64,000 bases of DNA from Octopus vulgaris. Its lineage: Eukaryota. A program made the position numbers and the translations under genes. Positions 134-62,719 of the stretch are shown in pieces. The notes below the pieces were generated by a model. It made no database searches. It was not told the origin of the DNA and saw only the letters and a list, made by a program, of their open reading frames with translations. The stretch lies in assembly GCA_951406725.2 (NCBI GenBank), contig OX597814.1, positions 158,348,001 through 158,412,000 of the forward strand. Reading direction: 5' to 3'. Each line of letters opens with the position of its first letter. The first letter of the stretch is position 1.

Positions 134-1011
134 AAACCCATCAATGGTTAAAGGCCTCTGGCTTAAAATCTGAAACAGAAGGGTCTATCATAGTAGCTCG
201 AGATCAATGCCTACATATAAGGAACTACCAGGCCAACATATTAAAGAACGGCAGTAGCCCAACATGTCGTGTATGTCAACAACAAAATCAAACCATTGAT
301 CATGTTGTCTCCAAGTGCAGTCTTCTTGCGCCTACAGAGTATCTCAACAGGCACAATATAATCACAGGGTAATTTGCAAAAGCCTAGACTTGCTTCATGA
401 TAAAAACTGGTGGGAACATAAACCACCCCCAGTGCTTCAAAATGATTACATCTCACTCGTCTGGAACTTCACCATTCAAACTGATAGAAAGATAGACGCG
501 AATAGGCCAAACATCATATTGAAGACTTCAGATAATAATCATGCCTCCTCATTGATATGACTGTCCCAATCGATATAAACTTATCTGTCAAGACCTACCA
601 AAAACTGAGCAAATATAAAGATCTTGAAATAGAAATCAGCAAAATGTGGAACCTGAAGATTAAAACAATACCTGTTGTCAAAGGTGCCCTTGAGAATGAT
701 AGCAAAAGGGGCTTATTGCTACCTAGCTCAGATACCAGGAAACCCCAAAATGGTAGAAATTCAAAAGATAGTGCTCATGGGAACTGCCCATATCCTACGC
801 AAAATATTCTCTATGTAATCTCAAGTTTTAAAACAAACATAATTTTCTTACGGTTTCTTAAACATTCTCTAGAACAACTCTATGTACAAAACCAAATATA
901 TGCCACCCTAGCCATAACACCAACATGAAATTCCAACTTGTTGTCTCTTGAGGTCTCTGGGTGAGACTTAGAGCCAACTCGTACAAATGTAAAGCAAAAA
1001 TCAAACATAAA

Positions 1012-1012
<1 letters not shown>
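134..1012 (+). mobile_element. 5'-truncated, frameshifted R4/Dong-like non-LTR retrotransposon (restriction-like endonuclease 3' end), copy 1
   Basis: ORF pieces give LKSETEG..ARDQ, CCHC knuckle CRVC..TIDHVVSKC, RH, NRP-I and KLSKYKDL. Close paralogue of the 3' part of 1054-2408, bounded by (AAT)n on both sides. Confidence 0.9.
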
Positions 1013-1053
<41 letters not shown>

Positions 1054-1056
<3 letters not shown>

Positions 1057-2406
1057 GAAAAATAAGGAAACTGTTGACAATGCATAGAATGCACCACCCT
1101 AGGGCAGATACAGAACGACTCTATCTGCCAAGAAAAGAGGGAGGCCGTGGTCTTTTGCAACTGGCAATAACAATGAAGATTGCTACAATTGGCCTAGACA
1201 CCTACCTGAAAAACTCTGAGGACTGGATGTTAAAACTTGTCTCAAAACATGAAAACAAGAAAGCATCATACTCAGTCACAAAACAGGCAAAGGAATATCT
1301 AAGTGAATTCCGAATACAACCAATTTCGGAATTAGAGATAGACATACAAGAAACAAGCACAGAAAAAGCTAGGCGCATGAAAACCCGTGCCAAAACTGCG
1401 GCCTTAGATATTCTGAATAATAAATGGCAAGAAAAACCTCTCTATGGCAAATACCCAAAGAGAGCGAATAATGCAGATATCGACAAAGCCCTGACCCATC
1501 AATGGCTAATGGCCTCTGGCTTAAAATCTGAAACAGAGGGGTTTATCATAGCAGCTCAAGATCAATGCCTACCAACAAGAAACTACCAGGCCAACATATT
1601 AAAGATCAGAAGCAGTCCAACGTGTCGTGTATGCAAGCAACAAAATGAAACCATTGACCATGTTGTCTCCAAGTGCAGTCTTCTAGCGCCTACAGAGTAT
1701 CTCAACAGGCACGATAGAGCTGCACAATATATTCACTGGGTAATCTGTAAAAACCTGGATTTGCCCCATGAAAAAAACTGGTGGGAACACAAACCACCCC
1801 CAGTGCTTGAAAATGACCACATCTCACTCCTCTGGAACTTCACCATTCAAACTGACAGGAAGATAGATGCAAATAGGCCAGACATCATATTGAAAGACTT
1901 CAAACAAAGAACATGCCTCCTCATTGATATGACTGTCCCAATCGATATAAACGTATCTGTCAGGACCTACCAAAAACTGAGCAAATATAAAGATCTTGAA
2001 ATAGAAATCAGCAAAATGTGGAAGCTGAAGACTAAAACAATACCTGTTGTCATAGGTGCCCTGGGAATGATAGCAAAAGGGGCTGATAGCTACCTAACTC
2101 AGATACCAGGAAACCCAAAAATGGCAGAAGTTCAAAAGATAGTGCTCATGGGAACTGCTCATATCCTACGCAAAATACTCTCTATGTAACCTCAAGGTTT
2201 AAAACAACCATAATTTTCGGTTCAAAAAAAAAAAAAAAAAAAAAACTTTTTTTTTTAGACATTCATTAGTACAACATCCCCACCCCCCAAATATATGGCA
2301 CACTAGGCATAACAACAACATGAACTTCCAACCCTGTTGTCTCTTGAGGTCTCTGGGTGAGACTTGGAGCCAACTTGTACAAATATAAAGCAAAAGTCAA
2401 ACATAG

Positions 2407-2408
<2 letters not shown>
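1054..2408 (+). mobile_element. 5'-truncated R4/Dong-like RLE non-LTR retrotransposon, copy 2, with 3' UTR
   Basis: Contains ORF 1074..2189, starts right after (AAT)n at 1013-1053 and ends in (AAT)n at 2408-2433. Confidence 0.92.
1074..2189 (+). CDS. C-terminal part of an RLE-LINE polyprotein: post-RT linker (RLYLPRKEGGRGL), CCHC zinc knuckle, PD-(D/E)xK restriction-like endonuclease
   Basis: Motifs CRVCKQQNETIDHVVSKC, RHD, NRPDIIL..LLIDMTVP, KLSKYKDL and PVVIGALG. Open for 371 codons but lacks the RT core. Confidence 0.88.
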   Translation: MTMHRMHHPRADTERLYLPRKEGGRGLLQLAITMKIATIGLDTYLKNSEDWMLKLVSKHENKKASYSVTKQAKEYLSEFRIQPISELEIDIQETSTEKARRMKTRAKTAALDILNNKWQEKPLYGKYPKRANNADIDKALTHQWLMASGLKSETEGFIIAAQDQCLPTRNYQANILKIRSSPTCRVCKQQNETIDHVVSKCSLLAPTEYLNRHDRAAQYIHWVICKNLDLPHEKNWWEHKPPPVLENDHISLLWNFTIQTDRKIDANRPDIILKDFKQRTCLLIDMTVPIDINVSVRTYQKLSKYKDLEIEISKMWKLKTKTIPVVIGALGMIAKGADSYLTQIPGNPKMAEVQKIVLMGTAHILRKILSM

Positions 2409-2433
<25 letters not shown>

Positions 2434-2437
<4 letters not shown>

Positions 2438-5630: not shown

Positions 5631-6375
5631 CAAACTACTAATTTTCTTGTTATGAAAGTTCTAGGATCTATTATATATGAGGTATCTATTTAGAGACGAA
5701 GTTAGTGATGTGTCCGATGAAAGTGGCATCATTTGACATGATTACTCATGGTCATTAGATATCTGATCAAAGGTCAACTATTCAAATAGTTTCACAAGAC
5801 AATCCATTAACAACCACCAACTCCGAAACCTCCCCCAATCAAATATCTTGTGTTTACCATTCACTATTGTCTTTCAGCTATCGTTCATCAACAATCTTTC
5901 ACTCCCACCCTGATTAACAAACCCCAACCCCACCACAAACATACCAAATCCTATATATAGAATCACAAAACCCTAAATCTTCAGATCTGTTTGACAACGA
6001 ATGTGAGAGTTTTCCAAGGAAGTTAACAAGAAGCTTTTTTTTAACTCTCCACACCCAAGTTAACAAAGAACTTACTAGATCTATGAACTAAAATTTATAT
6101 TATTAAAGAGTTAAGAAATAATAAATGAAACTGATTAGAACTACCAGTAAATTCATTCGTTTTCTTTTTTCATATATATATATATATATATATATACATC
6201 ACCTAAAGCTCCACGAGGCTCCGGCAGGGAGTGGTGGTGATCCCTGATGTACTCTTTCGCCACAACTTTCTCTCACTCTTTCTTCTGCTGGCCTGCTCGC
6301 TTAAACAATGCGCTTCGCATTGTGACCAGCGATGTTTAGCAACATGTGATAGCCTGGTCGGTCACGGTGATCACG

Positions 6376-6420
<45 letters not shown>

Positions 6421-6616
6421 AAACTCGTTAAAATGAATGTTCCATAATTCACCTTTTGTAGAGAGGAAAACAGACAGATGGAGGAAAATTCTTCTTATAT
6501 ATAGAAGATCTGAAAGTGACCGTGCTTTACCAGTAAGCTACCAAGTGTAAACCATTCGTTTTATTATCCATTATATTTTATTTGCACCGTTGCTGACGTC
6601 CTGTATCCATATGTGC

Positions 6617-6667
<51 letters not shown>

Positions 6668-6905
6668 TAAGGGTAGAAATTGATATTTATCAATTAAGAC
6701 CAGTGGTCTAGCATATTAAAAAAGAATCCGAAGATTAAAATATTTATATATACCAATTAAGGACTGAACACGAAAAGTGGACAGTCAACATGCTAGATAT
6801 AGACATCAAATCGTCATTCACCACAAAAGATTATGTTCTCAGATCAAACTCAACACAAAGCCATAGCAATAAACAAGTGAAAAATATACGAAATAAAATA
6901 ATTAC

Positions 6906-6970
6906 CCATGTACTAACTTAGTTTCAGCTGTTATTTTCCGCAAGGAAAACTGCAGCCATCATCAGCATGG
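6906..6970 (-). ncRNA. Type I hammerhead ribozyme, family A
   Basis: Reverse complement of 7537-7601. Confidence 0.85.
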
Positions 6971-7536
6971 TCCGTTATAAATGTAATTTGCTGGACTAGA
7001 TGCAAACACGATACCGAAATATCGCGTGCATGGAGTTCAGCCTATTACATTTGAATATATCTTTCAAATGCCTTTACTTTGGCGCGTTGAAACCCGAGAA
7101 AACTAGCCTGCAGCTAGTAATTAGCAGCAGTTAATTTATCGGTTAGAGAACATATTTATTTATATAAAATTAATTAAGGGTAGAAATTGATATTTATCAA
7201 TTAAGACCAGTGGTCTAGCATATTAAAAAAGAATCCGAAGATTAAAATATTTATATATACCAATTAAGGACTGAACACGAAAAGTGGACAGTCAACATGC
7301 TAGATATAGACGTCAAATCGTCATTCACCACAAAAGATTATGTTCTCAGATCAAACTCAACACAAAACCATAGCAATAAACAAGTGAAAAATATACGAAA
7401 TAAAATAACTCGGGTTTCAACGCGCCAAAGTAAAGGCATTTGAAAGATATATTCAAATGTAATAGGCTGAACTCCATGCACGCGATATTTCGGTATCGTG
7501 TTTGCATCTAGTCCAGCAAATTACATTTATAACGGA

Positions 7537-7601
7537 CCATGCTGATGATGGCTGCAGTTTTCCTTGCGGAAAATAACAGCTGAAACTAAGTTAGTACATG
7601 G
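7537..7601 (+). ncRNA. Type I hammerhead ribozyme, family A
   Basis: CCAUG-CUGAUGA-u-GGCUG...CAGCU-GAAA-CUAAGUUAG-UA^-CAUGG. Stem I is CCAUG/CAUGG, stem III is ACUA/UAGU, with GUA cleavage after 7596. Confidence 0.85.
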
Positions 7602-8043
7602 GTAATTATTTTATTTCGTATATTTTTCACTTGTTTATTGCTATGGTTTTGTGTTGAGTTTGATCTGAGAACATAATCTTTTGTGGTGAATGACGATTTG
7701 ACGTCTATATCTAGCATGTTGACTGTCCACTTTTCGTGTTCAGTCCTTAATTGGTATATATAAATATTTTAATCTTCGGATTCTTTTTTAATATGCTAGA
7801 CCACTGGTCTTAATTGATAAATATCAATTTCTACCCTTAATTAATTTTATATAAATAAATATGTTCTCTAACCGATAAATTAACTGCTGCTAATTACTAG
7901 CTGCAGGTTAGTTTTCTCGGGTTTCAACGCGCCAAAGTAAAGGCATTTGAAAGATATATTCAAATGTAATAGGCTGAACTCCATGCACGCGATATTTCGG
8001 TATCGTGTTTGCATCTAGTCCAGCAAATTACATTTATAACGGA

Positions 8044-8108
8044 CCATGCTGATGATGGCTGCAGTTTTCCTTGCGGAAAATAACAGCTGAAACTAAGTTA
8101 GTACATGG
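8044..8108 (+). ncRNA. Type I hammerhead ribozyme, family A
   Basis: Same as 7537-7601, offset +507. Confidence 0.85.
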
Positions 8109-8550
8109 GTAATTATTTTATTTCGTATATTTTTCACTTGTTTATTGCTATAGTTTTGTGTTGAGTTTGATCTGAGAACATAATCTTTTGTGGTGAATGA
8201 CGATTTGACGTCTATATCTAGCATGTTGACTGTCCACTTTTCGTGTTCAGTCCTTAATTGGTATATATAAATATTTTAATCTTCGGATTCTTTTTTAATA
8301 TGCTAGACCACTGGTCTTAATTGATAAATATCAATTTCTACCCTTAATTAATTTTATATAAATAAATATGTTCTCTAACCGATAAATTAACTGCTGCTAA
8401 TTACTAGCTGCAGGCTAGTTTTCTCGGGTTTCAACGCGCCAAAGTAAAGGCATTTGAAAGATATATTCAAATGTAATAGGCTGAACTCCATGCACGCGAT
8501 ATTTCGGTATCGTGTTTGCATCTAGTCCAGCAAATTACATTTATAACGGA

Positions 8551-8615
8551 CCATGCTGATGATGGCTGCAGTTTTCCTTGCGGAAAATAACAGCTGAAAC
8601 TAAGTTAGTACATGG
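8551..8615 (+). ncRNA. Type I hammerhead ribozyme, family A
   Basis: Same as 7537-7601, offset +1014. Confidence 0.85.
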
Positions 8616-9057
8616 GTAATTATTTTATTTCGTATATTTTTCACTTGTTTATTGCTATGGTTTTGTGTTGAGTTTGATCTGAGAACATAATCTTTTGTGG
8701 TGAATGACGATTTGACGTCTATATCTAGCATGTTGACTGTCCACTTTTCGTGTTCAGTCCTTAATTGGTATATATAAATATTTTAATCTTCGGATTCTTT
8801 TTTAATATGCTAGACCACTGGTCTTAATTGATAAATATCAATTTCTACCCTTAATTAATTTTATATAAATAAATATGTTCTCTAACCGATAAATTAACTG
8901 CTGCTAATTACTAGCTGCAGGCTAGTTTTCTCGGGTTTCAACGCGCCAAAGTAAAGGCATTTGAAAGATATATTCAAATGTAATAGGCTGAACTCCATGC
9001 ACGCGATATTTCGGTATCGTGTTTGCATCTAGTCCAGCAAATTACATTTATAACGGA

Positions 9058-9122
9058 CCATGCTGATGATAGCTGCAGTTTTCCTTGCGGAAAATAACAG
9101 CTGAAACTAAGTTAGTACATGG
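9058..9122 (+). ncRNA. Type I hammerhead ribozyme, family A
   Basis: As above; a G>A change at 9071 turns the first G.U pair of stem II into A-U. Confidence 0.85.
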
Positions 9123-9273
9123 GTAATTATTTTATTTCGTATATTTTTCACTTGTTTATTGCTATGGTTTTGTGTTGAGTTTGATCTGAGAACATAATCT
9201 TTTGTGGTGAATGACGATTTGACGTCTATATCTAGTATGTTGACTGTCCACTTTTCGTGTTCAGTCCTTAATT

Positions 9274-9309
<36 letters not shown>

Positions 9310-9312
<3 letters not shown>

Positions 9313-9683
9313 TTGTTTTCCGTGAAAGTTTGGCGCGCTGTTAGTTGGGGCATTTGAATTATAACGTCGGATGTAATCAATTGAACCACACGCGTATTTA
9401 TCGTTATGGTAAAATCTGGCGTGTGATTGAGTGGATTTCATCCAGATAGTTTTGGCTGAAGAGCTACAAGTGGATTTTATTGTAAGTAAAATTACATTTA
9501 ATTCATTAATAGCGAAACAATTGTCCCAAAATAATCTGTATTTGTTATTTTTTATTTGCCCTGTCCGTGTGAGCTAACAATCGTACTGACTTTCATGGGA
9601 AACATGTATTTTTGTGGTTGAAACCTTTTGGATTAACTGGTGCTAGAGTGAGCCATATAGTGACCACTCTCTTATATTTATTT

Positions 9684-9685
<2 letters not shown>
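9310..9685 (+). mobile_element. (TA)n-flanked non-coding mini-element carrying HHR family B
   Basis: Bounded by (TA)n at 9276-9308 and 9685-9715, with an internal HHR. Confidence 0.7.
9443..9538 (+). ncRNA. Type I hammerhead ribozyme, family B
   Basis: UUUUGG-CUGAAGA-GCUA...UAGC-GAAA-CAAUUG-UC^-CCAAAA. Stem I extends as CAGAU/AUCUG, with GUC cleavage after 9525. Confidence 0.88.
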
Positions 9686-9715
<30 letters not shown>

Positions 9716-9716
9716 G

Positions 9717-10247
9717 TTATCAGTAATAATATAGGGTGAAATTAATTAATTTGGAATAATCATTAATTTCACCAAATTTCATCCCAGTAAATGACCACAA
9801 CATCTTGTCTTAGCTGCACGCTGGTGGGAAGGGGTTGGTGACACAAACTTTCATTCACACTTTGAATTTGGTGATACTGGTAACGGCTTTAGCTCGCTCT
9901 GATACTGAGTTGAGATGATGCCTTCTAGTACCTCGAAATTTAATATACAATTATTCATAATTGTAGTGTCCTACGCTGATGAGAAAATAAGTTGGGTAAG
10001 ACATAATTATCTAATTCTTATGCTTTCCTAAAACTTAATTTCGAAACGTACGTCCGTAGGTGACTTAAAATTGTATGATAGATTGCCGTCATTTCTTTCT
10101 CTCTTGCCTGTCTGTGTTTGCCTTTCAAGTGCTGTGGTTTTACTGAGATCTCCCTTTTAGTAGAAAGAATAGCTATAACTCTTTGACTGCTATTTCTAAA
10201 TTCGGTGTGTGGTGAGGCAAATCGTTGCTAAACCCTTAATTACTTAG

Positions 10248-10248
<1 letters not shown>
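9717..10248 (+). mobile_element. (TA)n-flanked non-coding mini-element carrying HHR family C, with a short inverted terminal piece at 9720-9775
   Basis: Bounded by (TA)n, contains an HHR and ends CCCTTAATTACTTAG(TA)n. Confidence 0.7.
9970..10060 (+). ncRNA. Type I hammerhead ribozyme, family C
   Basis: CCUACG-CUGAUGA-GAAAAUAAGUU...AACUUAAUUUC-GAAA-CGUACG-UC^-CGUAGG, with GUC cleavage after 10054. Confidence 0.9.
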
Positions 10249-10318
<70 letters not shown>

Positions 10319-11261: not shown

Positions 11262-11470
11262 TTGAAAGGTCATATTGGTTTCAAATTAGTCCTGCAGTCT
11301 GTTGGATGGATTAAGTCGATTACATCAACTCCCAGTGCACTTATTTCACCGACTGTAAAGGACGAAGGACAAAGTCGACCTCGGCGGAATTTGAATTCGG
11401 AACGAACAGTCGAAATTCCATTAAGCATTTTGCCCACTATGCTAACGATTATGCCAGCTCGCCGCCTTCA
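11262..11470 (-). mobile_element. SINE family 2, degenerate copy
   Basis: Reverse complement of GGCGGCGAGCTGGCA...AATTCCGCCGAGGTCGACTTTG. Confidence 0.75.
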
Positions 11471-12242
11471 GTTGAAATATTATACTATTATACTATTAAA
11501 AAAAATCTCAGTTAGCAGTATTAAAATATTATACATTCAAAGACCAGAATGAACAAAAACGTCTTGACCCTGTCACACTGTTCTCGCTATAGCGAGAATA
11601 AGTTTAATGTTATCTTAGCTGGATTCCTTGTAATGTTGTAATGAACAATACATATAAACAAAGAAGATGCAGTCGCTTCTGTCCATTAGTTTGCCTGCAA
11701 TCGTTGCTCTTGGTCTGCATATGCACCTTCTCCTTTTTGGTTCAGGAGCCCAGGTTGAGAACAAAGTTAGAATTCAGATGCCTAGGTTTGAATATGACAT
11801 TTTACAAACGTTGAAAATACAATGCACATGTCTGTAACATGATGTTTGTGTATCTAAAATCAAAGACTGAAGTTTACATTATGCGTGATTAAATCTCAAA
11901 CAGAAGAATTATTAAGAAGAATCTATTAACATGTTAGAAGACACATTTATATGTCACTCTATCATAGCTGAATAGATTATAATTTATTGTCAAAAACTGC
12001 TATTGTTTTAACAATTTGTAGTCTTTGGCTTTTCTTATTTCTAGAACTTAAATATGTCGATCACTAAAAATGTCTTAATTATATTTTAAGCAACGCGGGT
12101 CTTATGATGTAAAACATGTCCAAATAATTATATACATATATTATTTATAATCAGAAGAATTCAAGCACTTAAGTGTATTTTTGGGTGTAGATACGGTTTT
12201 CCGGTACAGAAAACCTCTTCGAAGTCACGAGGTCACGAGTTC

Positions 12243-12790
12243 GGTGAGCTGGCAGAATCGTTAGCACGCCGGGCGAAATGCTCAGCGGTAATTCGTCTGC
12301 TGCTACGTTCTGAGTTCAAATTCCGCTGAGGTCGACTTTGCCTTTCATCCTTTCGGGGTCGATTAAATAAGTACCAGTTACGCATTGGGGTCGATATAAT
12401 CGACTTAGTGCTTTTGTCTATCCTTGTTTGTCTTCTCTGTGTTTAGCCCCTTGTGGGTAGTAAAGAAATAGGTATTTCGTCTGCCGCTACGTTCTGAGTT
12501 CAAATTTCGCCGAGGTCGACTTTGCCTTTCATCCTTTCGGGGTCGATTAAATTAAGTACTAGTTACGCACTGGGGTCGATATAATCGACTTAATCCGTTT
12601 GTCTATCCTTGTCTGTTCCCTCTGTGTTTAGCTCCTTGTGGGTAGTAAAGAAATAGGTATTTCGTCTGCTGCTACGTTCTGAGTTCAAAATCTGCCGAGG
12701 TCGACTTTGCCTTTCATCCTTTCCACTGAAACACTTTGTCTGTCCTTATTTGTTCCATCTATGTTTAGCCCCTTGTGGACAATAAAGAAA
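12243..12790 (+). mobile_element. SINE family 2, one head plus three tandem ~185-bp bodies
   Basis: TTCGTCTGC.GCTACGTTCTGAGTTCAAA...GAGGTCGACTTTGCCTTTCATCCTTTC repeats at about 12290, 12475 and 12660. Confidence 0.85.
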
Positions 12791-14450: not shown

Positions 14451-14936
14451 CAGGAAAGCTAAGAAGTTGGAGAGATAACAAAGTAATAGTGATCCCAAAA
14501 TGAAGGTGCGCGTGTGTATAAAAGAGTACGTTCGTGCGTGTGAAAGAGGGCTGGTGATCTTGACGTATGCATGTGTGTATGTGTAGGTGTGAAAATGTGG
14601 GGACGGGAATATCTATACCCAGCCGTAAACACATATCTACGGCTGTGTGTGTGCGTGTGTGTGTGCATGTATAAATATTTGCTTACGGGTGTGTATAGAT
14701 ATACATACATATAAATGTTTATGTTCAGATATATGCCTACTTATGTAGGTGTATACACATATTTGTATACAGATAATCATACTGAGGCGTAGATATATTC
14801 TCACATATGCACATATATATAACTATACATATATACGCATAAATGTATGTATATCAATGAAAGATATACACAAAATATAAGATTAGCAAACATCCCGAGC
14901 TATGTATTCTGACATCGTATGTATTCTGCTCTAAGT

Positions 14937-15120
14937 ACAGTGAACTGGCAGAATCGTTACGGCGCGAGAGAAAATTCTTAGCGGCATTTCGTTTGGCTTT
15001 CTACACTCTGAGTTCAAATGCCGAGGAGATCGATTTTGCCTTACATCCTTTTCAAAGTTGATAAAATAAGTACTATTTGAGAACTGGGGTCAAAATTGTT
15101 GGCCTGGTACCAAATTTAAA
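14937..15120 (+). mobile_element. SINE family 2, degenerate copy
   Basis: GTGAACTGGCAGAATCGTTA...CTGAGTTCAAATGCCGAGG. Confidence 0.75.
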
Positions 15121-15342
15121 AACAATAATTTGCATGCGTTCTTGTTAAGTTAAAGATTCTGGAACTACTGATTAATTCATTCCAAACCAGTTACCAACGA
15201 TATAATTGTGCTCCAAATGCGGTACGATTAAAAAATGTATAAGCACAGAATTCAAATTTTAAACACAAGTGAGACATTGTTTAAATGGAACCAACTTTGT
15301 AGACTGTTTTATACTTTTAGTGTATCAATATGAAATACAAGA

Positions 15343-15770
15343 AGGCGGCGAGCTGGCAGAAACGTTAGCACACTGAGGGAAATTCTTAGCGGCATTTTGT
15401 CTGTCTTTATGTTCTGAGTTCAAACTCCGCCGAAGTCACTTTGCCTTTCATCCTTTCGGGGTCGATAAATTAAGTACCAGTTACGCACTGGGGTGGATGT
15501 AATCGACTTAATCCCTTTGCCTGTCCTTGTTTGTCCCTTCTATCTTTAGCCCATTGTGGGCAATAAAGATATAAGAAACGTTAGCACGCCGGATGAAATG
15601 CTTAGCGGTATTTCGTCTGCCTTTACGTTCTGAGTTAAAATTCAGCTGAGGTTGATTTTGCTTTACATCCTTTCGGTGTCAATAAAGTACCTGTTGCGTA
15701 CTGGGGTCGATCTAATCGACTAGTCGCCTCCCAAAAAATTTCGGGCCTTGTACCTAGAGTAGAAAAGACT
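15343..15770 (+). mobile_element. SINE family 2, dimeric copy
   Basis: GGCGGCGAGCTGGCAGAAACGTTAGCAC at 15344, with a second AGAAACGTTAGCACGCC near 15574. Confidence 0.85.
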
Positions 15771-16439
15771 GTATCGCATATTTTTACATCAATGAATTGA
15801 CAAAATTACTATCCAATGTAATGGCAAGTGCTTGTTTCAAATCATTGTTAGAAGCATTTAAAAGGCCCTTTCTGTTTATGGGAGGCGCAAATAAGTCTCT
15901 CGTTTCACGTTCTTGGAGATAATCTTGCAGTAAGTTGAAAGAATTTTTCATTATACTGTTTTGCAAAAGATGTGTGTTTCTTACAAATCTGGTCGAGTTC
16001 AATGTTTCCTTAGTTGATGCTATGTTTATGATGACGCTTGCGAGAAGTTGTGTTGCCGTTGTGATCGATGTTTGTGCGAGTTTTCAAATACACTCACATT
16101 TGTGTCAGAAACACCAAGTAGATTATTATTTTGCATTTCATGTTCGCATTTTAGCTATAATTATTTTTGCGTACTGTCCCAAAAAATCTTTTCGATTACT
16201 GAAGAGGCATTTATATTTTTCATTTTTCGTCTTGCCATGTTGCCAGTCAGCAGCGTCTACAGAGATTCCTAAACGGCGAGCAATGTAGTCGACTTTTGCC
16301 AAGCACAACTTCCTACTACTCACCCCCTTGAATAGTTGCAGTCTTGGGTCAGGTAGAGACAAAGAATGTGAGTCTAACACTTGCGTTTTGTCGGAAACTC
16401 ACGGCGCGCAGAACTACGAAGTAGTTTGCACCTGTTCAG

Positions 16440-17000
16440 TGACGGATAAAACGCTTCTAAGCGTTTAGCCCGTCTTTACAACCTGAGTTAAAACTCTGCC
16501 GATGCCATCTTTGTTTTTTCAACCTTTCAGGGTCGATAAAATAAATACTAGTTGAAGCAATGGGCTCGATGTAAGCGATTTAACTCACCTCCAAAATTGC
16601 TGACCTTGTGCCAAAAATTAAAACCATTACTATTATAATGATTAAGTCAGCACGCCGATCTTAGCGACATTTTGTTCGTCTTTAAGTCTTTTTGGGGTCG
16701 ATAAATTAAGTACCAGTGAAATATTGTGGTCCATGTAATCAACTAGTTCCCTCCCTCAAAATTTCAAGCTTTTTGCTTCTAATAGAAAAGATTATTAATA
16801 TTAAGGTGGTGAGCTGGCAAAACATTAGCGCATCTAATAAAATGCTTGGCGGCAATTTTTCCAAGTCTTTGAGTACAAATTCTACCGAGCTTGACTTTGC
16901 CTTTCATCCTTTGGTGGTAGATAGCATAATTACAAGTTGACGTATGGGGTCGACGAAATCGACTTACCCGTTCCCTTAAAAATTACTGGCCAAAATTTAA
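16440..17000 (+). mobile_element. Cluster of three degenerate SINE family 2 copies
   Basis: Repeated GGGTCGATAAA..AGTAC and GAGCTGGCA motifs. Confidence 0.65.
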
Positions 17001-25757: not shown

Positions 25758-25759
25758 TT

Positions 25760-26240
25760 AATCAATATAGGGTGGCAAAAAAAATTTTGTAGAATTCTTT
25801 TGCCACCAGCGGCCTAGTAGGAAAAAATTAAATAGTCATAAACCATTTTTACGTTCAACATCACAATCAAGGAACGGCCATAATAGGCCATTCACCCACT
25901 AGAAATAACAGCCAAAACCTTTAACCGCAAAATAACATTAATACCGTAAACCAGGAGAAAATTGAAAAACTTTTACCCTGTAATTTCTTAGACGATGCAC
26001 CGTTTCATCTACCGTTTAATGGTAAACTAACCTGATTAAATTAAATCAAGCCAATCCACCATAGGCCCTTAGACTCATCAGTAAGAAATAGCCAAATCGG
26101 AACAGATATTTTTCACGAGGCATTCCTCTTGCTGCCTCGGCAATATCTGACCTAAAATTTTCAAATCGTCGCACTCGCGCCAAATTTATCGGCAGCAAAT
26201 GAACCACCGATTCCGTTACGGAACTAACGGAATTGAACAC
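25760..26240 (-). mobile_element. (TA)n-anchored HHR mini-element, family D, copy 1
   Basis: Homologous to 27740-28195, contains an HHR, and its 3' end abuts (TA)n. Confidence 0.8.
25983..26089 (-). ncRNA. Type I hammerhead ribozyme, family D
   Basis: AUUUCUUA-CUGAUGA-GUCUA...UAGAU-GAAA-CGGUGCAUCG-UC^-UAAGAAAU, with an 8-bp stem I and a long stem II extension. Confidence 0.88.
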
Positions 26241-26477
26241 TTGATGTGGTTTTCGTATCAGATTTTGACTGATATTTCAAGCATGGTGGTATCGCTTAGG
26301 TACCCTTTCATTCTTTTTAGTTTCAGCTCAGAGCTGCGGCCATGCTGATGCACCACCGTTATGCCACCACGCCATTATGCACCACCCTTATTTATATTTT
26401 TAATAATTATAACCTTTAAGGTCCTTTCTTTCCGTACTGCCACTTGATTTGACCGTTGTTTAAAATAATGATCTTAT

Positions 26478-26545
<68 letters not shown>

Positions 26546-27128
26546 GCAGCGTGGAAGGTGTTTATAAGCCATTTAAGAAACACACAAAAGCCGTTCGATT
26601 CACTTCAACATTTAAGTTTAATTTATCAAAATATTTTCGTCGCTAAAATCCGCGACCTGTTCACTGACAAAGTCCGTGCTGCATCTAAGAAAGTAACAGT
26701 TAGTTCGTCATATATATGTACGTATGTATGTGTGTATGTATGCATACATGTGTGTATGTATGTACGTATGCATGTACGCACATACGCCTGTGTATGTATG
26801 TATGTATGTATGTATGTATGTATGTATGTATGTATGTGTGTGTATATGCACGCACATACACTAACGGTATTGAACTAACGGTATTGAACACTTGATGTGG
26901 TTTTCGTATCAGATTTTGACTGATATTTCAAGCATGGTGGTATCGCTTAGGTACCCTTTCATTCTTTTTAGTTTCAGCTCAGAGCTGCGGCCATGCTGAT
27001 GCACCACCGTTATGCCACCACGCCATTATGCACCACCCTTATTTATATTTTTAATAATTATAACCTTTAAGGTCCTTTCTTTCCGTACTGCCACTTGATT
27101 TGCCCGTTGTTTAAAATAATGATCTTAT

Positions 27129-27190
<62 letters not shown>

Positions 27191-27518
27191 GCAGCGTGGA
27201 AGGTGTTTATAAGCCATTTAAGAAACACACAAAAGCCGTTCGATTCACTTCAACATTTAAGTTTAATTTATCAAAATATTTTCGTCGCTAAAATCCGCGA
27301 CCTGTTCACTGACAAAGTCCGTGCTGCATCTAAGAAAGTAACAGTTAGTTCGTCATATATATGTACGTATGTATGTGTGTATGTATGCATACATGTGTGT
27401 ATGTATGTACGTATGCATGTACGCACATACGCCTGTGTATGTATGTATGTATGTATGTATGTATGTATGTATGTATGTATGTATGTATGTATGTGTGTGT
27501 ATATGCACGCACATACAC
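26223..27518. repeat. Near-identical direct tandem duplication of about 650 bp
   Basis: GAACACTTGATGTGG at 26235 and 26886; copies differ mainly in (TA)n and (TATG)n length. Confidence 0.95.
26545..26683. repeat. ~140-bp interspersed repeat with terminal TGCAGC../..GCTGCA inverted ends; other copies at about 27190-27328 and inverted at about 36090-36224
   Basis: Three homologous copies; termini TGCAGCGTGGA and TCCGTGCTGCA. Confidence 0.75.
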
Positions 27519-27739
27519 TCTATAAAACATAAAGCTATAAACCTGTAGCGATGGATGGATGTAGAGTGACCACTCATCACAAAGCTATCAAATTTCAACT
27601 TCCTACGGCCGAAGCTAGAAAGTGATTTATGACGCTTACTCCCAAAACTATACCCTAAAATCTATTATCAGATTTTTATCTCTATATCACAGAACTATTG
27701 TTTTACTGTTATATATTGTTATATATTTACATTTTAGTC

Positions 27740-28193
27740 TCATGACTATTTTTCTTTTCCACTGGGCCGCTGGTAGTGATAAATTTCTATCGAATTTTTT
27801 ACTACCCTAAATTGATTAATTGATTATCTTCTGACTAATTCTGAGATTGAATCGGCAGTTTATATTTGCTGCTGATAAGATTGGCGCGATTACGCTGGTC
27901 TTCGAAAATTTTAAGACAGATATCCCAGAGGCTTCGATGCAGTAGCCTCGTGTATATTTGCCTCTACCAAAGGTTTCTTTACTGATGAGGCGTGACCTAT
28001 GGTAGATTAGCTTAATTTAATTTAATTAAGCTGGTCTATCATTAAAAACGCAGAAACGATGCATCGTCTAAAAGATGAATTAGGGTAAACGTTTTTAATT
28101 TTTCACCTATTTCCGAATTATATTACTTTGCGGTTGGAGTTATGGCTGCTCTGTCTAGTGGATGAATGGCCTGTTAAGGCCATTCCTAAATTG

Positions 28194-28195
<2 letters not shown>
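27740..28195 (+). mobile_element. (TA)n-anchored HHR mini-element, family D, copy 2 (diverged and circularly permuted)
   Basis: Blocks are homologous to the reverse complement of 25760-26240, in rotated order. Confidence 0.75.
27975..28075 (+). ncRNA. Type I hammerhead ribozyme, family D
   Basis: UCUUUA-CUGAUGA-gGCGU...ACGCa-GAAA-CGAUGCAUCG-UC^-UAAAAGA, with GUC cleavage after 28068. Confidence 0.82.
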
Positions 28196-29604: not shown

Positions 29605-29679
<75 letters not shown>

Positions 29680-29680
<1 letters not shown>

Positions 29681-29960
29681 GAGGGAGATAAATTAATATT
29701 AATTTAAAACCAGTAGTCTAGCATACAAAAATCTGAAAAATCAGAGAAAATTCTAATACATGTGTATATTGACAGGGCAAACCGCTAGGTAGTCGGCCGC
29801 ATGCTAGAAATAGATCATCAACGATCAAACTACAAAGAATGTTCTCTAGAGGAAAATTCAGCGAACACCAGAAACAAATTAGGCGGGCAAGACAGATGAA
29901 AATTTATATAAAAAACAGAATTAATCGCATACCTCGGTTTCAACTATTAACAAAAGAAAT
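29680..29960 (-). mobile_element. Diverged, 5'-truncated relative of the 507-bp HHR unit
   Basis: Shares ACCAGT.GTCTAGCATA and CATGCTAGA.ATAGA with 6699-6803. Retains only the HHR 3' half GAAACCGAGGUA and abuts (TA)n. Confidence 0.65.
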
Positions 29961-31399
29961 ACTTACATAATTCAAATGTCCGTAGTTTCGTCAGTACGAT
30001 CGTATTTTCAGGAATAGTGTATCTAACTTTTATGGCATCATAATTTTCATACCCTGTGTAATTAGAAAGCGTCTCACTGTGCCTTTTGCTTCCAGGTACT
30101 AAAATCAGAAACGACGTTGATGGCAATTTTGTCGTTATAGCAAATCCACTTGTATCTATTTTGTGTTTTATAGTATTTTTATAGTTTTTTTTCTATTTTA
30201 TTTTGATATAATTTTATATAATATTATTTCCTTGCATGAAGAATAATTTGTTTCATTCAAACTCTGTGACATTTTTCAGATATTCTCAATAAATCTTATC
30301 TTATTCATGCTAAACGTAATTAATCCTCACTTAAAAGTGGATGCTGTATTCGAACACAGAATACTGCGTTATTTACCATGCAATAACCTTTCATATAGAC
30401 TTGTGGTGCATATAAGCACTCATATTTATATCTCTAGTGGGAGATGATCACCCGCTATCACCGTCGAGTCTGTTAATTCAAGCTATCTCCACCCTTGTTG
30501 GCCTTGTCAATGATAGTCGTCCTTAGCTAGAGATAGCAGCAAATTTCCGTTTGCGATATACATAGTATTTCAGTGTCTATTCAGGCAGTGATGTCAAAAG
30601 CATCCACTTATCTTATATGGAGATAAATACTATCTTTCGTTTTTAATGCTGATTCTATTAGTATTTAATTATTTTTTATAAGCCCCACTGGCTATTTACA
30701 ACACTAATGCCTAAATAGACACTGAGATTCTATGTATATCACTGATGGGGGAATCACTACTATCTCTAGCCACGGGTATCTGCTATTGGTAAAGCCAAGG
30801 AACAGAAGTTATAGGAGCTGGTAGTCCCGGTGGCGATAGTGGACGATTATCTCCTGCCAGCGATATAAATACGACTGTTTGTATCCACTGCAAGTCCTTA
30901 TGAAAGGTTCTCTCTTAGTAATTAACACAGTATTCTGTGTTCTAAAATAACACACACTTTTAAGTAGGAATAAATATTACCTTAACCACGTTGTTTGAGA
31001 TGTAATTCTCAATCTTCTATAGTTGAGAAGTCTTTTCTTTTATATACAATTTAAGGGTTCTACATCGATTATTTTGAATATATATTTTTTTGTTATTCGT
31101 TTTGCATAACAATACACTGATTTCTGACTGAGGATCAAATTGAAAGATGCTATTAGTCTTTGTTTTGTTTTCCTCTCTCTTTCGCAACTGCATGTTACAT
31201 TCTTTTTTTTTCTTTACCTTATTTTCTCTACATTTTATTCCTAAATTTTAGTAGCAGTATTTTAGCACGTTATTTATGCGCGATACATCTAGACAGTATC
31301 TTCAGTTAAGTTGTCAACTTTAATTATTTTTTCATTCTGTTTTTGAGAAACACTTTTTTAAATGAATTCTCCTGTGAAGATTTCTTCTGTCAAATATAT

Positions 31400-34544: not shown

Positions 34545-34965
34545 GTGAGCTGATTGAATCGTTATCGCGCCTGAGAAAATACGTAACGGCAGTTCGTCCG
34601 TCTTTACGTTCTGCCTTCAAATTCTGCCGAAGTCGACTTTGCCTTTCAACCTTTCGGAGTCGATAAAGTAGCAGTTGAGCACTGGGGTAGATGTAACCGA
34701 CTTACCTCCACTCCCTGAAATGCTGGCCTAGTGCCAAAATTTGAAACCGATCTTTATCATAGTCATGAATGTATGACAAATAACGCATAAGAATTATTCT
34801 TTCTACACAGGTAAGAGGACAAAAATTTGTAGGGAAGGGACGGTTGATTGTATCCATTGCCAAGCTCAAGTGGCACTTATTTCATCCATTCCAAAAGGAT
34901 GAAATGTAAGGTCGACCTCTGCGGAATTTGAACTCAGAATGTAAAGACAGACAAAATGCCGCAGC
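34545..34965. mobile_element. Two SINE family 2 copies in inverted (tail-to-tail) orientation
   Basis: Plus copy 34545-34745 and minus copy about 34830-34965 (AAGGTCGACCTCTGCGGAATTTGAACTCAGAA). Confidence 0.75.
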
Positions 34966-41067: not shown

Positions 41068-41475
41068 CTACCTACTGTCTTCGTGCTTGACATTTTTATA
41101 GAGGATACATTTCTCGTCACCAGTTACTATTGGGTCCAAAAAAGGTTCATTCGTGAGACGTGACAGCAAAGAAAAACAAACATTCATTCTCTGCGCGCGA
41201 TTATAGTCGAAAAGTTTGTGAGGAACCCATTGACCCAATTTGCTGATTTTTCCGATGGCACACACGTGACGGTGAATGATTGAATGACAAAATCCAAGCT
41301 TTTCTGCAAGTTCCTTAATAGTTGCGAAGGGATTTTGTTCCACAAGGGTTTGCAGGACATCCTCGTTGAACTCTACAGAAATTCCAGGTCGATGCTTGTA
41401 TTCTAGACTGTAGTTTCCGGCTCGGAATTTCTGGAACCACTGTTGACGCTGGCTTACGCTTATTGTCCGATCCAC
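41068..41475 (-). pseudogene. Mariner (Mos1/SETMAR-like) transposase internal fragment
   Basis: WFQKFRAGNYSLE, KLGQWVPHKL (WVPHEL motif) and FLDPIVTGDEKCILY (first catalytic D). Confidence 0.88.
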
Positions 41476-44318
41476 GTGGAATTACATACCTTTGTACTAA
41501 TGTGGCAAGTATGGGTGCCTCTTGCAGCAGGTTTTACAGTATTCTTTTGGTGAACCTTCCTTTGGCATTTCAGTACGCTGTCTGATGCACATTCCTTTTT
41601 ACACCACCCTGTGAGGGGAGGTGCCGTTTAATGCATTGCTAACACTCTCAGTGTTTGGATAGGTTCTCTGATGATTTCTAAGGCCTACCTTACTTAAACT
41701 GGTACCAGACTCGTTACAATGGGGCTGTATACCAAAATATTCGTACCAAATTAGCATCAGTATATCCTAAAGAACATCTCTCTGAAACTTACGAATTCCC
41801 TACTTGCATTATGTACTGCATTCTTTCACAATATACAATCGAGAGGGAGGTTTTTTTCCCATTTTCTAAGGCTTTACTTTTTCTAGTGTATCCGATGCAG
41901 TCCTCAAAACTTTACTCGGTTTTCAGCTCAGGTTTTTTACTCTAGGTTTACTCACAGTATCAAATTGCTTAGGGTTCTGATCATCTTCTATCCCCAGTAC
42001 ATAACCTCTCCGTCCACTCACCCATCCATCCATCCAGCAATACATACATACATGCAATCATTCATACACAATACACACACGTGTGTGTGTGTTTATATTT
42101 ATGCATATACTCAGCTGAAAATCTACAAAGGTGACAAAAATTCTAAGAGTTTTGTAGGTCAAACTTATTAGATTTATCAATGTTGATAGTTTTCAGGATC
42201 TAAATTAAAAAAGATCTACCTCTGAATTTTGATCTTTGTTTATCTTGTTTGAACGTATGTGCCTACATATATTTAAAGAGCATACGCATATAATAGCAGT
42301 CCCAAACATTGTCTTGTGATGCACTAAACTCTGAAATATAATAGGTATAGAATAAGAATATAATCGTGACATTATAGCAAATTTTATGTTTGCCCTCTTC
42401 CGCTCTGACATCAACAAAATGTCTATCCAAACTATTCAGATTAAAAATAGCAACATACCTGGAATGTAACTGCACACCTGCTAAACGAGTCTGCAAGAGA
42501 GCAGAAATGTGGTATTTCTGGTGCAACGCTTCTATAGGCGTTACTTAGTCAATCCACCGATGACCTGAATATTTTTAAATCTAATCGATCACCAATGATT
42601 GGTGGGGAATGGAACACAAGTGTAGCAGCTCAAACTATTAAAATGATCATTTTAAAGAGCATCAACGAGAAAAGAAAACACGATTATAATCTTCAGGCAT
42701 AAAGTCTGCAGTAACAAACTAATTCAGAAAAGTGCTGCAACATCTCCAATTTCATAGTGATATGTTTAAATGTTTTTATTAGCTGATAACATTTAAAGTA
42801 CAAATAGCAGACTCGAAGTGAAAACACTTTATGCGATAAGCATATATTAGATGAGCGAGAAAATATATGCAGATAAGCCGTTTACTATTTATATTTATTT
42901 CCTACGTAATGAACAAATCGACATTTCTGATTTTACTTTAACTTTTATTCGGCATGCTTATTAAATATAATAAGTAGGTTGTTAAAATAAGTTCTGATAT
43001 TGCCCGTATTCAGAGAATTTGATATTATGGCTGAATAGTATTGAGAAAACCGTAGTAAATGATGTACAATCTAGGATAAATAAACAATAATAAAATAATT
43101 ATTAAGATAAAGGTGAACATATATCATATTCATATCGAAACAAGAATGCCAACCAGCCGAAAAATCTGTAGATAAATATACGCATATCAAAAATCCAATA
43201 CCCACGAGATTTTTATCAAACAAATTTGATAAAAAAAAGTTATATATGCTTCAGAAAAATAAACGAAGAATAGTATATGCATCATCAACAGAGAAAAGAG
43301 AATATCTAACATAGATATCAGAATTATCTTAATTTGATAAAATTTTATTCATCCGTGTTATGAATAGAAGTAGCTAAGATTTATGTCTAATCACAGATAA
43401 CAATATTGTATATTATATCAATGGGTGCTAATACGCAGCGCCAAGAGTTTCATGCATGACTAAGCTGCATTTTGATCTATCCAAAAAGTTCAATGAAATA
43501 AATATTAGCTACCTGTTATTGAAAACATACTAGATAAAACTACTAGAATAAAATCGCGTTGAGACAGTTACGATAATAAATGTGAGCAGAAGCATGAGAA
43601 ATTGTGAATTCTGAGTGAAAAGCTTACTCAACAAGCTTAAATTTGTCGCTGAGAGAAAACACGTCTGCATTTGAAAACAAACCAGTTTTACCCTTTATTA
43701 TAATCAATATATGAAAAATCTACTCCTTGATCAAAACTGCATTCGCTGCAGAGTATGTTCTGATATACTACACGTGGTTGCAAAAGAGAGATGTGAATTC
43801 TATTTTACTATAAGAGTGTGTATATACATCTGCTGTACGAAGTCGCTGCTCTTATACGTATTTGTAGATACTCGTAAATTTATACTATGGAATATCGTTG
43901 GTGATGAGAGCAGTAATATTTTTTTTTATTTTAAGCTTCAAACAGGATCTTGTACACAGTTAACCAAAAGTTTAATTCATCATCTTTCTTTCGCCCGACT
44001 ACGGCCCAGTGTTTTATTCTCGGAGTTCTTAAGGTGGTAATAGCGTCTTTTTGCATCCATTTTTCCAGCGCGTAGAGAGGCTTATAGCCAATCCTTCATT
44101 ATTATGTATATAATTAAAATATTCGTAAAATTTATCTATAAGGATTTTATTTCCGCTCTGACCTCCTGGTAAAATCATGAATGATTTTTGCCCTTTATTA
44201 TAATATATGTGTGTGTTTGTGTATGTGTATGTGAGAGAAAGAGAGAGTTGTATGATATATAGATCAAACATTATTTAATATTGAACTCAATGATCTGTGT
44301 GAGAAGAAGTTGACAGTC

Positions 44319-45555
44319 TGCGAGGGTCGACTGAAAAGGGCAGAGGCTGACCAAGATATTTTCATGAAATGTGATCAAATGCGGTTTAGTTTTCAACATA
44401 GTCCCCGTAGCGGTTCACACACTTCTTTCATTGGTGTTGCTGTGCTTGGATCCCATCGGTGAGGAAGCTTTCATCCTGTTGCTCAAAAAAGTCATCAACA
44501 GCAGATGTAACGTCTTCGTCACTACTGTACGTGTTCACTTGTCAAGTGTTATTTCGCGCCAGCGAACAGATTACAGTCAGATGGGGCCAAATCAGGAGCA
44601 CAGGGGCAGCTCAAAGATACATTCACGCACACCAGCCTTTGAAACCAAGAACTTGTATGCTGGAGTATTGTCCCCATGGAACAAGACCCCTTTCGTCATT
44701 TCCTTTGACGTTTGATCTTCGTAACTTTCGAAACTGCCCCAGCTGGTGCGAATAGTACTTTCCATTGATGGTGTGGACTTTTGGAACACAGTCAATAATC
44801 ACAATGTCATTTGCATTCCAAAATACTGAAGCTACATGAAACAACCATGATCTTCTTTTGGGGAAGATGAGGAGGGGTGCTTCCATTGCATGGATTATCT
44901 TTGTCTCTGGTTCAAAGTGATGGAGCCAACACTCATACTGGTTTAGAAAACATTCAAAGAACCAAGCTGGATCTGCCTCAAACAACGTCAGATTTTTCCG
45001 TGACGTGATCAACCTGGTGCGCTTTTGATCAGGTGTCAGAAGACTGCACCAACTGAGCAGAAACTTTCATCATAGCAAGTTCATTGCAGAATATTATCAA
45101 TGCTTCTATGGGATATGCTAATAGCAGTTATTATTTGATTTATAATCAATAGTCTGTTATCCATTATCTGCGTTAACACAAGGTGAATGCAAGCAATTTT
45201 TAACTAGGAGGTAGTAGTTGCAGGACGTCCATAACTTGGATCATCTTCGAAACTCTCTCTTCAATTTTTAAATTCAGCTGCCCACATTTGCACTGTTAAT
45301 AAAGCTGGAGCGTTATCGCCATGTCAGCATGAATTTCCTTGGGAGATAAACCCTTTTTTCTACACGTATTTGATGCGATGCGAAATTTTATCTATTTTCA
45401 AGAGAAGTCGCTACTAGTAACGTTGTTATTTTTTTTGAACAGTCAGATGTTAGTTTACCTAGAGAAAAACAATTCAGTTATTAATGCGTTGAAATTAATG
45501 CATGCAAGATTTCACAGCTCTAGCATCACTCCTTCACAGCCAGCTCACCTTCGTA
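44319..45555 (-). mobile_element. Near full-length degenerate mariner element
   Basis: ECWLHHFEPETK, ASVFWNAND..HTINGKYY, GVLFHGDNTPA and DLAPSD motifs; ends resemble TACGAGGG TIRs; about 1.24 kb. Confidence 0.8.
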
Positions 45556-48718: not shown

Positions 48719-48788
<70 letters not shown>

Positions 48789-48830
48789 GTCTTTCTGTCT
48801 GTCTGTCTATCTATCTATACATTTATCTAT
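48615..48830. repeat. (TATC)n microsatellite
   Basis: Directly visible. Confidence 0.97.
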
Positions 48831-48898
48831 CTTTTTACATACATACGTACACACATATGATGGGTTGATATGCAATATATTTAAATATAATTAACGCG

Positions 48899-49320
48899 TA
48901 TATATAATATATTAATATATAAAACAAATGTAGATCTCAATACAAGAAACAAAAGACAAATCATTAAAACAAGAAATATAATATATAAAGAATGTGCTGG
49001 ATCAATTTAATGTCCCATCCTTAAGAAATCTTCGGTGGACAGAAATTCATAATTGAAGATGATAGGCGAAATTATTCACTTCTAGCTTGATAAAGATTTG
49101 ACATGACTTCCCTATACGTTTTGAAAGTATACATTTATATGTCATTGTCTTTAAAGAAAAAAAGCTGCCAAGAAACATGTAGTGTCGTACATTCTCAGAA
49201 TGCATTGTGAATAAATGAACGAATAACCATAAATTTGAATTTCAATAATTGCATATGTATAGTTAGAAAATGTTTATCTTATATTAAACTTATTAATACT
49301 TCTTGATAGTTATATATATA
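48899..49320 (+). repeat. Left arm of a ~420-bp near-perfect inverted repeat
   Basis: Reverse complement of 54413-54832, with about 3 differences seen. Confidence 0.95.
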
Positions 49321-49379
49321 TATATGTAAAATAATATATACGGACCGACAGAAAAGAAAGGAGTCATGGAGGAGTTGCT

Positions 49380-50189
49380 ATGTACATCCGTGAGGACCTC
49401 ACACCCCAGGTTTTTCTGTCATACTCAAACTCGGTGTGTGACACACTAATTGTACATGTAAGGCAACTTGGTGTAGTTGTGTGTGCTACATATCGCCCTC
49501 CAGATGCCCCAAGCCATATGGGCAAGTTTGAAGACTGCCTTATAAAAATAGAAGAAGTTCTAGTCACACTAGAACAGCACATGAGTGTACCTCTCATGGG
49601 AGACTTCAACCTACCCAATGTCAGATGGCCCGAGGGCCCTTCTCTCCCAGGAATGACACGATGTGAACGGGGACAGGCGAGGTCCCTCCTGAACCTCATC
49701 AACACCCTGTACATGGAGCAAGTAATACTCCAACCAACCAGGGCAGGTAACACACTGGATCTCTGCTTCACAAATAATATGGATCTCATCCATAATGTGA
49801 AAGTGACACCGACACTACTCTCGGATCACAACATGGTAGAGCTGACCATGTACGGGCCAAAGGAAAGCATGGACATGCAGCCTACAAGAAACTCTCAGAA
49901 TCTTTCCAGCTTGAACTTCAATAAGGCAAACTGGAAACAAATTGAGAAAGAGATCCTCAAACAAAACTGGCCTGAATGTCTCTCCTCGCCGGACATCGAC
50001 ATGAAACTTCAACAATTCATGTCTGTAATGCAAGCCATATACTACAAATGTTTCCCAGAGAGAAAGGCCACTATACACAAGAACAAAATCCCCAGAGAGA
50101 GGAAAATTCTAATGAGACGGCGCACAAAAATCTCAAATCGCCTAAACAAACAAATTGAAAGCAGTGAAAATGAAACTGTTGGAAATTGA
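49380..50189 (+). pseudogene. LINE ORF2 AP-endonuclease domain (partial)
   Basis: YRPP, GDFN, PTR, LDL and SDH motifs; frameshift near 50165. Confidence 0.9.
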
Positions 50190-52497: not shown

Positions 52498-52590
52498 GGT
52501 AAAATCGTGTAGCAAACCAAATGGCGGTGCCCCAGCATGGCCACAGCTCATTAGCTGAAACTGGAAAAATCAAAATCAAATCAAAATCAA

Positions 52591-54402
<1,812 letters not shown>

Positions 54403-54412
54403 ATATATACAA

Positions 54413-54832: not shown

Positions 54833-54847
54833 TTATAATATATATAT

Positions 54848-54916
<69 letters not shown>

Positions 54917-62623: not shown

Positions 62624-62711
<88 letters not shown>

Positions 62712-62719
62712 CGTACATA

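Follow-up and report, generated by a model that had tools for sequence, protein, structure and literature searches.

A hammerhead retrozyme array lying in a (TA)n microsatellite of the 64-kb window analysed here (a stretch of 64,000 nucleotides from Octopus vulgaris) was probably inserted in one event by the reverse transcriptase (RT)-endonuclease of a Penelope-like element (PLE), with priming at two preferred sites on the RNA. A preliminary description of this DNA had recognised a Penelope insertion signature, and the combination of an inverted truncated arm, a partial tandem, (TA)n and an extension at one end supports that view. It had also proposed two priming events, which is likewise supported, with one event for each target strand, in that each arm ends at an end site of the family within (TA)n.

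Array anatomy and the identity of the unit

The array is built from a 507-bp unit whose phase 1 falls at 7409, 7916, 8423 and 8930. A tandem arm on the plus strand (7409-9288) begins at phase 1 and comprises 3.71 units. An inverted, 5'-truncated arm on the minus strand extends from 7408 to 6645, covering 764 nt or 1.51 units from phase 198 to phase 445/454. The arms meet at a blunt head-to-head (5'-5') junction (7408..7409), where phase 198 of the minus arm abuts phase 1 of the plus arm. Each side has no letters in common with the sequence that would natively continue the opposite one, and the minus arm begins 9 nt past the predicted hammerhead cut. The orientation switch and the unequal starting points of the arms are therefore as originally reported. 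The foldback of about 750 bp is borne out as sequence, since 6645-7408 is complementary at 99% to 7606-8369 over 764 nt, enclosing a 197-nt loop.

Assembling inverted repeats within microsatellites is difficult (PMC8557442), and the array might in principle be an assembly or read chimera. Against this, its flanks are only 21% identical to each other and are not mirrored, and the arms are offset by 197 nt, an anatomy unlike that of a read fold-back artefact. Moreover, the private variants described below are not mirrored between the arms and the layout fits a known biological pattern. We consider a chimera very improbable, and the observed layout is confirmed as real in the assembled sequence. 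Contigs of the four runs examined (X1, X2, X4 and X10), which can show presence but not absence, gave no cover of 7389-7406 in any of the four. A joint spanning the whole array, as expected from an empty site, was absent from the best 15 of 60 joints, in which rows at (TA)n were skipped.

Each unit carries a predicted type I hammerhead, to which the preliminary description made no reference. The motif lies at 7542..7596 on the plus arm, with copies at 8049-8103, 8556-8610 and 9063-9117, and at 6911..6965 on the minus strand in the minus arm. Its stem I measures 5 bp, its stem II is long and its stem III is close to palindromic; an additional U follows A9, and the predicted cut falls between phases 188 and 189. 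A scan for core plus stems recovered the core and stems I-III in all five complete unit copies, with two hits in 20 shuffled windows as a control, none of them scoring 12 or more. Rfam at E<=1 reported no hammerhead in the unit and returned only chance hits to TA repeats. The unit has a GC content of 33% and its RNA is strongly self-paired (folding z of -7.5 against shuffles). No reading frame of at least 120 amino acids is present in 6645-9288, no LTR-like layout is visible in the array, and the unit motif had no matches among viral contigs. Having no ORF, the array was not filed as an autonomous PLE. As judged from its sequence, the unit fits a non-LTR retrozyme, being non-coding, AT-rich, self-paired and tandem with a predicted hammerhead in every copy.

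The array resembles known non-LTR retrozymes in its non-coding, AT-rich, self-paired tandem unit, in the type I hammerhead of each unit and in its co-occurrence with PLEs. Its 507 bp exceed the 150-450 bp of the animal units described in one study (Cervera and de la Peña, 2020; PMC7229834), but lie within the 51-972 bp of a later preprint (Li, Clavereau and Pollet, 2026; 10.64898/2026.07.22.740005). In the latter study, eight of nine predicted frog elements did not cleave.

Array ends, copy divergence and family copies

Both arms end within the target microsatellite. The minus arm leaves the unit at TTTTATATA, the TA run of phases 440-445, and enters the left (TA)n (6620-6659), 13 of 15 letters fitting (TA)n through phase 454. 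The plus arm leaves at TTGGTATATATA (phases 347-354) and enters the right (TA)n (9276-9308), with 12 of 13 letters fitting through phase 359. On the plus strand of the first tandem unit these correspond to an upstream end site, TATATATA (7755..7762, phases 347-354), where the plus arm and other copies in the genome end, and to a downstream end site, TATATA (7848..7853, phases 440-445), where the minus arm and relatives end. Among the alternating TA runs of the unit the plus-arm site is the longest (8 nt) and the minus-arm site one of the two second-longest (6 nt), and together they are the two best 14-nt matches to (TA)n in the unit (12/14 each). Breakpoints touching a TA run of at least 6 nt number 23 of 507, and both ends would do so by chance with a probability of about 0.002, which upholds the earlier statement that both arms end at internal TA motifs inside (TA)n. 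The minus arm reaches 91-95 nt beyond the plus arm, and the resulting 91-nt 'tail' (6654..6744, minus strand, phases 355-445), found at the minus-arm end only, equals the spacing of the two 3'-end sites. Any target-site duplication is hidden inside (TA)n, and the letters beyond it differ between the flanks; neither the left flank (6380-6640) nor 6190-6380 has similarity to the unit above that of shuffles.

The microsatellite appears to have been there first. The two TA motifs are unexpanded in all nine of their internal copies but long at both array ends (Fisher p 0.018), which favours insertion into a pre-existing (TA)n and supports the target proposed initially. The window holds 51 TA arrays of at least 12 nt. 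A CCTTAATT-like motif precedes the ends at 5 of 102 TA-array sides against a background of 1.3%, and four of these are true element ends; the pattern was derived from those same ends and misses two others, and we treat it as a lead only. The array belongs to a chain of (TA)n arrays (6172-10298) in which neighbouring arrays enclose one insert each. These inserts are 6197-6378, 6416-6619, the retrozyme array itself, 9313-9683 and 9716-10247, and three of the five carry hammerheads. We read this chain as a microsatellite serving as a repeated landing site.

Divergence among the copies is slight. Unit copies differ by six variants in 2630 bases, all of them transitions and each private to one copy, so that the 5.2 copies diverge in a star-like manner with no variant common to copies. 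At five sites that are polymorphic in the family all copies of the array agree, and at position 7693 all six array copies carry the letter that is in the minority by summed depth in each of the four runs. That all six transitions are private and no variant is shared argues for a single template copied in a single event. A homogeneous source array could also give homogeneous copies, which leaves the form of the template undecided. These data bear on a stepwise origin, in which a monomer or short array came first, unequal crossing-over enlarged the tandem, a later DNA inversion produced the minus arm and the (TA)n grew by slippage from the TA motifs. Unequal crossover is the favoured model of local amplification in 10.64898/2026.07.22.740005, and the abundance of TA arrays in the window is compatible with slippage. 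Such a history is nevertheless improbable given that the copies have no variant in common, that internal TA motifs have not expanded, that both outer ends fall on family-wide end sites and that head-to-head joints occur in other copies as well. It is possible that the plus arm alone grew later, from 1.7 to 3.7 units.

The preliminary description also raised the possibility that the foldback forms dsRNA as a substrate for ADAR or siRNA production. A read-through transcript would form a long duplex, and the inner part of the foldback folds computationally, but the idea found no support in the data. The only A>G site listed in X10, a run guessed to be RNA, is position 7693, which is equally present in the DNA runs; it was therefore rejected as evidence of A-to-G editing and is a genomic variant. 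No RNA data set was among those listed as containing this sequence.

The unit represents a multi-copy family, with 1551, 646, 1718 and 102 contigs of the four runs falling on one unit. Loose ends were considered among the best 24 of 132 rows. Among those listed, exits at 7767 (phase 359) into TA-like sequence were made by at least 9 contigs of X2, at least 14 of X4 and at least 2 of X10; they form the biggest listed loose-end groups of X2 and X4, and the X2 contigs concerned differ in their flanks. One X10 contig among those listed enters (TA)n near the downstream site (7842-7862). No 7767 exit appears among the six rows listed for X1, yet two listed pieces stop at 7762 and 7767. A single (TA)n loose end at a 5' end was seen in X5, at phase 224. 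Contig depth is higher over phases ~190-450, a measure that cannot rank parts of the unit.

Head-to-head (minus-to-plus) joints are also found in other copies, as 10 clusters at varied phase pairs in four runs (among the best 15 of 60 joints), although these are weak, with sides of 18-29 nt. A single-orientation reference at 93% likeness gave no strand-change joints, only 'goes back' joints, among the rows listed. The unit's own hairpins were rejected as a source of the other-copy joints, their identity of 9-13/25 being that of background. A stop near the hammerhead cut was not supported as a family rule (1 of 20 arm starts against 0.47 expected). In two of the 10 clusters the joints are near-perfect fold-backs, at phases ~284-289 (7317-7696/7697) and ~247-258 (6850/6852-7657/7666); those at ~284-289 occur in runs of three organism labels. 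Joints of this kind are relevant to the idea that self-priming or snap-back of one cDNA or antisense template made the inverted arm with no second target-primed event. This has been suggested for head-to-head PLE junctions with palindromes (PMC3846280), and the two fold-back clusters would agree with it. The focal junction, however, is non-palindromic, its arms start 197 nt apart and share no letters, and its minus arm ends at a family-wide 3'-end site in (TA)n, just as a target-primed end would. We therefore judge a snap-back origin of this array to be improbable and favour priming on both target strands.

Related elements, a Hydra-clade PLE remnant and the role of TA pairing

Five further hammerhead elements lie in the window. 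A distant relative occupies the right flank of the array (9313..9683, plus strand), with a type I hammerhead at 9456-9525, and ends in (TA)n. Another element (9716..10247, plus strand; hammerhead 9976-10054) stands between two (TA)n arrays. Two elements belong to a sister subfamily: one on the minus strand (25758..26213; hammerhead 26081-25991) ends at the downstream site and one on the plus strand (27740..28194), of more than one unit, ends at the upstream site. A diverged relative (29679..30000, minus strand; hammerhead 29994-29930) ends in (TA)n at the downstream site. All four of the other elements detected by the scan reach (TA)n 159-252 nt past the cut (159 nt for the hammerhead at 9456, 194 for 9976, 252 for 29994 and 234 for 26081), against a background of 0.14 each for 0-260 nt, and a fifth (27985), found by alignment, also ends in (TA)n. 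Alignments place the ends of the window elements at homologues of the same two sites, the two most distant aligning poorly. In the sister subfamily, the read-through version of the upstream site in element 25758 and that of the downstream site in element 28194 have no TA run, a comparison of two old copies at 72% identity. Between the two head-to-head sister hammerhead elements there is a tandem duplication of about 650 bp (26221-26862 and 26872-27519; 97%) that includes microsatellites; it may be genuine or may reflect a haplotype in the assembly.

The sole PLE remnant in the window is a 5'-truncated element (53290..54252, minus strand) that retains thumb, linker and GIY-YIG regions. Its CxCX5C linker and the CxxC and CxH endonuclease motifs were found, the Pfam GIY-YIG match is weak (E 0.0065), and full-length homologs at 38-45% identity carry RWK and DKT in the RT. 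The Hydra clade is defined by a C-terminal GIY-YIG, the CxCX5C linker, CxxC and CxH, and RWK and DKT in the RT (PMC8557442), and by these motifs the remnant classes as a Hydra-clade PLE. We regard it as a candidate for the kind of element that would supply the partner enzyme of the retrozyme. The unit has no match above shuffles to the 3' region of the remnant, and the window yielded no autonomous partner element with sequence in common with it.

The remnant adjoins (TA)n at 54289-54332, carries a decayed hammerhead-like motif in its 3' region (52590-52700) and abuts a LINE tail. An inverted duplication of about 570 bp (48756-49328 and 54404-54940; 89.5%) surrounds the LINE and the PLE remnant; both copies have TA-rich borders, and no hammerhead was found in it. 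Broken LINE remnants lie at 49335-52497 (plus strand; endonuclease and RT) and 61453-62719 (minus strand; RT at 61844-62719). A further LINE is represented at 136-2435 (plus strand) by two 3' fragments in tandem, which carry TAA tails and are 86% alike. Fragments of mariner-like transposase are present on the minus strand at 41068-41481 (a weak HTH_48 match) and 44623-45066 (recognised by eye). A SINE-like repeat with many copies (11308-11470, 12242-12723, 14934-16976, 34545-34748 and 55891-56124), partly as a 185-bp tandem, presumably resembles an octopus SINE family.

Relatives of the remnant were collected from metagenome contigs, 80 loci being used of 243 confirmed. These 80 contain 65 relaxed matches to the hammerhead core, and a conserved GCTC...GAGC hairpin follows the core at 46-66 nt in 28 of the 65 (background 5.6%; one at 12 nt was dropped). 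A GCTC...GAGCAC hairpin stands right behind the commonest Hydra 3' end (for example, L025:290-320 and L012:2365-2390), and this hairpin is a candidate start signal for reverse transcription. In 10 of the 65 the core is followed by (TA)n, at 39-59 nt in seven and at 110-124 nt in three, which suggests that Hydra PLEs use two fixed end zones relative to the hammerhead. The end sites of the octopus unit lie 159 and 252 nt from the cut, much further than in the Hydra PLEs.

These comparisons help to define what TA pairing may contribute. The simplest form of the microhomology idea holds that nicked (TA)n anneals to the longest TA run of the RNA and alone sets both ends. In its favour, the array ends at the two best TA matches of its unit, and 11 of the 28 Hydra read-through copies, which are related loci and not independent, have a TA run of at least 5 nt within the 18 nt preceding the hairpin. 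The corresponding figures are 1 of 28 for positions farther upstream and 4 of 28 for positions downstream, and shuffling predicts 3.7. However, the remaining 17 of the 28 sites have no such run, and among 10 hand-picked pairs of terminal and read-through copies, of which six were informative, three have a TA run at the end site and three end at a fixed site without one. The sister elements 25758 and 28194 likewise end at homologous sites that lack a TA run in their read-through versions. The unit's remaining 6-nt TA run (phase 39-44) has no (TA)n loose end among the rows listed, and the start sites of a PLE are not homologous to the cut DNA in vitro (PMC11167929). Microhomology as the only determinant is thus unlikely. 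Given sister elements and Hydra sites without TA runs, the ends are likely fixed start sites that are TA-enriched, with pairing acting as a helper but not a requirement. The original appeal to TA microhomology therefore stands in so far as both ends sit at the best TA motifs, but not as the sole or a necessary cause, relatives having sites without TA runs.

Mechanism, known systems and significance

The explanation that we consider probable, insertion by a PLE enzyme in one event, can be set out as follows. The enzyme would nick both strands of a pre-existing (TA)n. The bottom-strand 3' end would then prime at about phase 354 and copy 3.7 units, the top-strand 3' end would prime at about phase 445 and copy 1.5 units, and the two cDNA ends would be joined bluntly head-to-head. 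Where synthesis starts would depend on position in the RNA or on RNA structure, as for the PLE 'tail', and pairing of the TA runs with nicked (TA)n would assist. Each arm is longer than one unit and runs across hammerhead sites, so the template would be a circle or an uncut multimer. The proposal of rolling reverse transcription on a circular or multimeric template accordingly holds with regard to a more-than-unit template and is divided as to its form: a circular monomer copied round has a little over an even chance, and a linear multimer with uncut hammerheads, resembling L1 twin priming, a little under. The latter would explain why a gap of 53-62 nt separates the second primer site from the beginning of the plus arm (chance 0.12) and why the minus arm stops at a distance of 9 nt from the cut (chance 0.02), both arguments being post hoc.

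Insertions of EN+ PLEs show a partial tandem, an adjacent inverted 5'-truncated pLTR copy and an optional tail of 30-40 bp at one end only, and (TA)n targets are used by Neptune, Naiad and Hydra PLEs (PMC8557442). The inverted and tandem arrangement is also described in PMC3846280, where self-priming is proposed for palindromic junctions, and PLE hammerheads have an extra base after A9 and a palindromic helix III (PMC4209133). The octopus array shares the arrangement and the (TA)n target and has an extension at one end only, and its hammerhead shares the extra base and the palindromic helix III. It differs in having no ORF, more than five units, a tail of 91-95 nt instead of 30-40 and a non-palindromic junction. 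A second precedent is biochemical. The purified Poseidon PLE protein of the green anole nicks and extends both strands in vitro. Its two internal start sites, whose spacing equals the tail, lie in an AC-rich stem-loop that has no homology to the target (Frangieh et al., 2024; PMC11167929). Priming of both strands and two internal start sites spaced by the tail would be common to both systems; the Poseidon start sites are unlike the target, whereas the putative ones of the array coincide with target-matching TA runs. In L1 twin priming, the second target strand primes internally, giving a 5' inverted segment and a small deletion before the direct segment. A 5' inversion and a small gap between the putative primer site and the direct segment are found here too, and internal second priming would be shared, but the array has no poly(A), would involve a different enzyme class and a multimeric or circular template, and the gap, at a chance of 0.12, is not significant.

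Literature searches, which covered main texts and few subscription papers, found no retrozyme array that combines (TA)n ends with an inverted arm. In its main text, PMC7229834 does not use the words 'inverted', 'microsatellite' or 'target site', and the available text of 10.64898/2026.07.22.740005 does not contain 'inversion' or 'tail'; insertion ends of this kind are undescribed in those texts. The available portions of PMC13282606 and PMC7943196 add nothing on retrozyme array ends. Each ingredient has already been published, which makes the array a good test case and not a new system. A bolder extension, which we offer tentatively and regard as doubtful, is that a dimer of the PLE enzyme, priming both target strands on one more-than-unit RNA, writes each array in full as it inserts. 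The family would have evolved TA runs at two fixed start sites that pair with nicked (TA)n like a telomerase template, and PLE microsatellite targeting would be partly RNA-guided, with the conserved hairpin marking the start of synthesis.

Published work leaves open what enzyme mobilises the retrozymes of animals, whether reverse transcription or later unequal crossover produces their arrays (PMC7229834; 10.64898/2026.07.22.740005), and how PLEs form tandem and inverted structures and choose microsatellites (PMC8557442). A young array with readable ends, a readable inversion point and per-copy variants bears on both the retrozyme and the PLE questions, and the family is small enough for the existing in vitro PLE assay.
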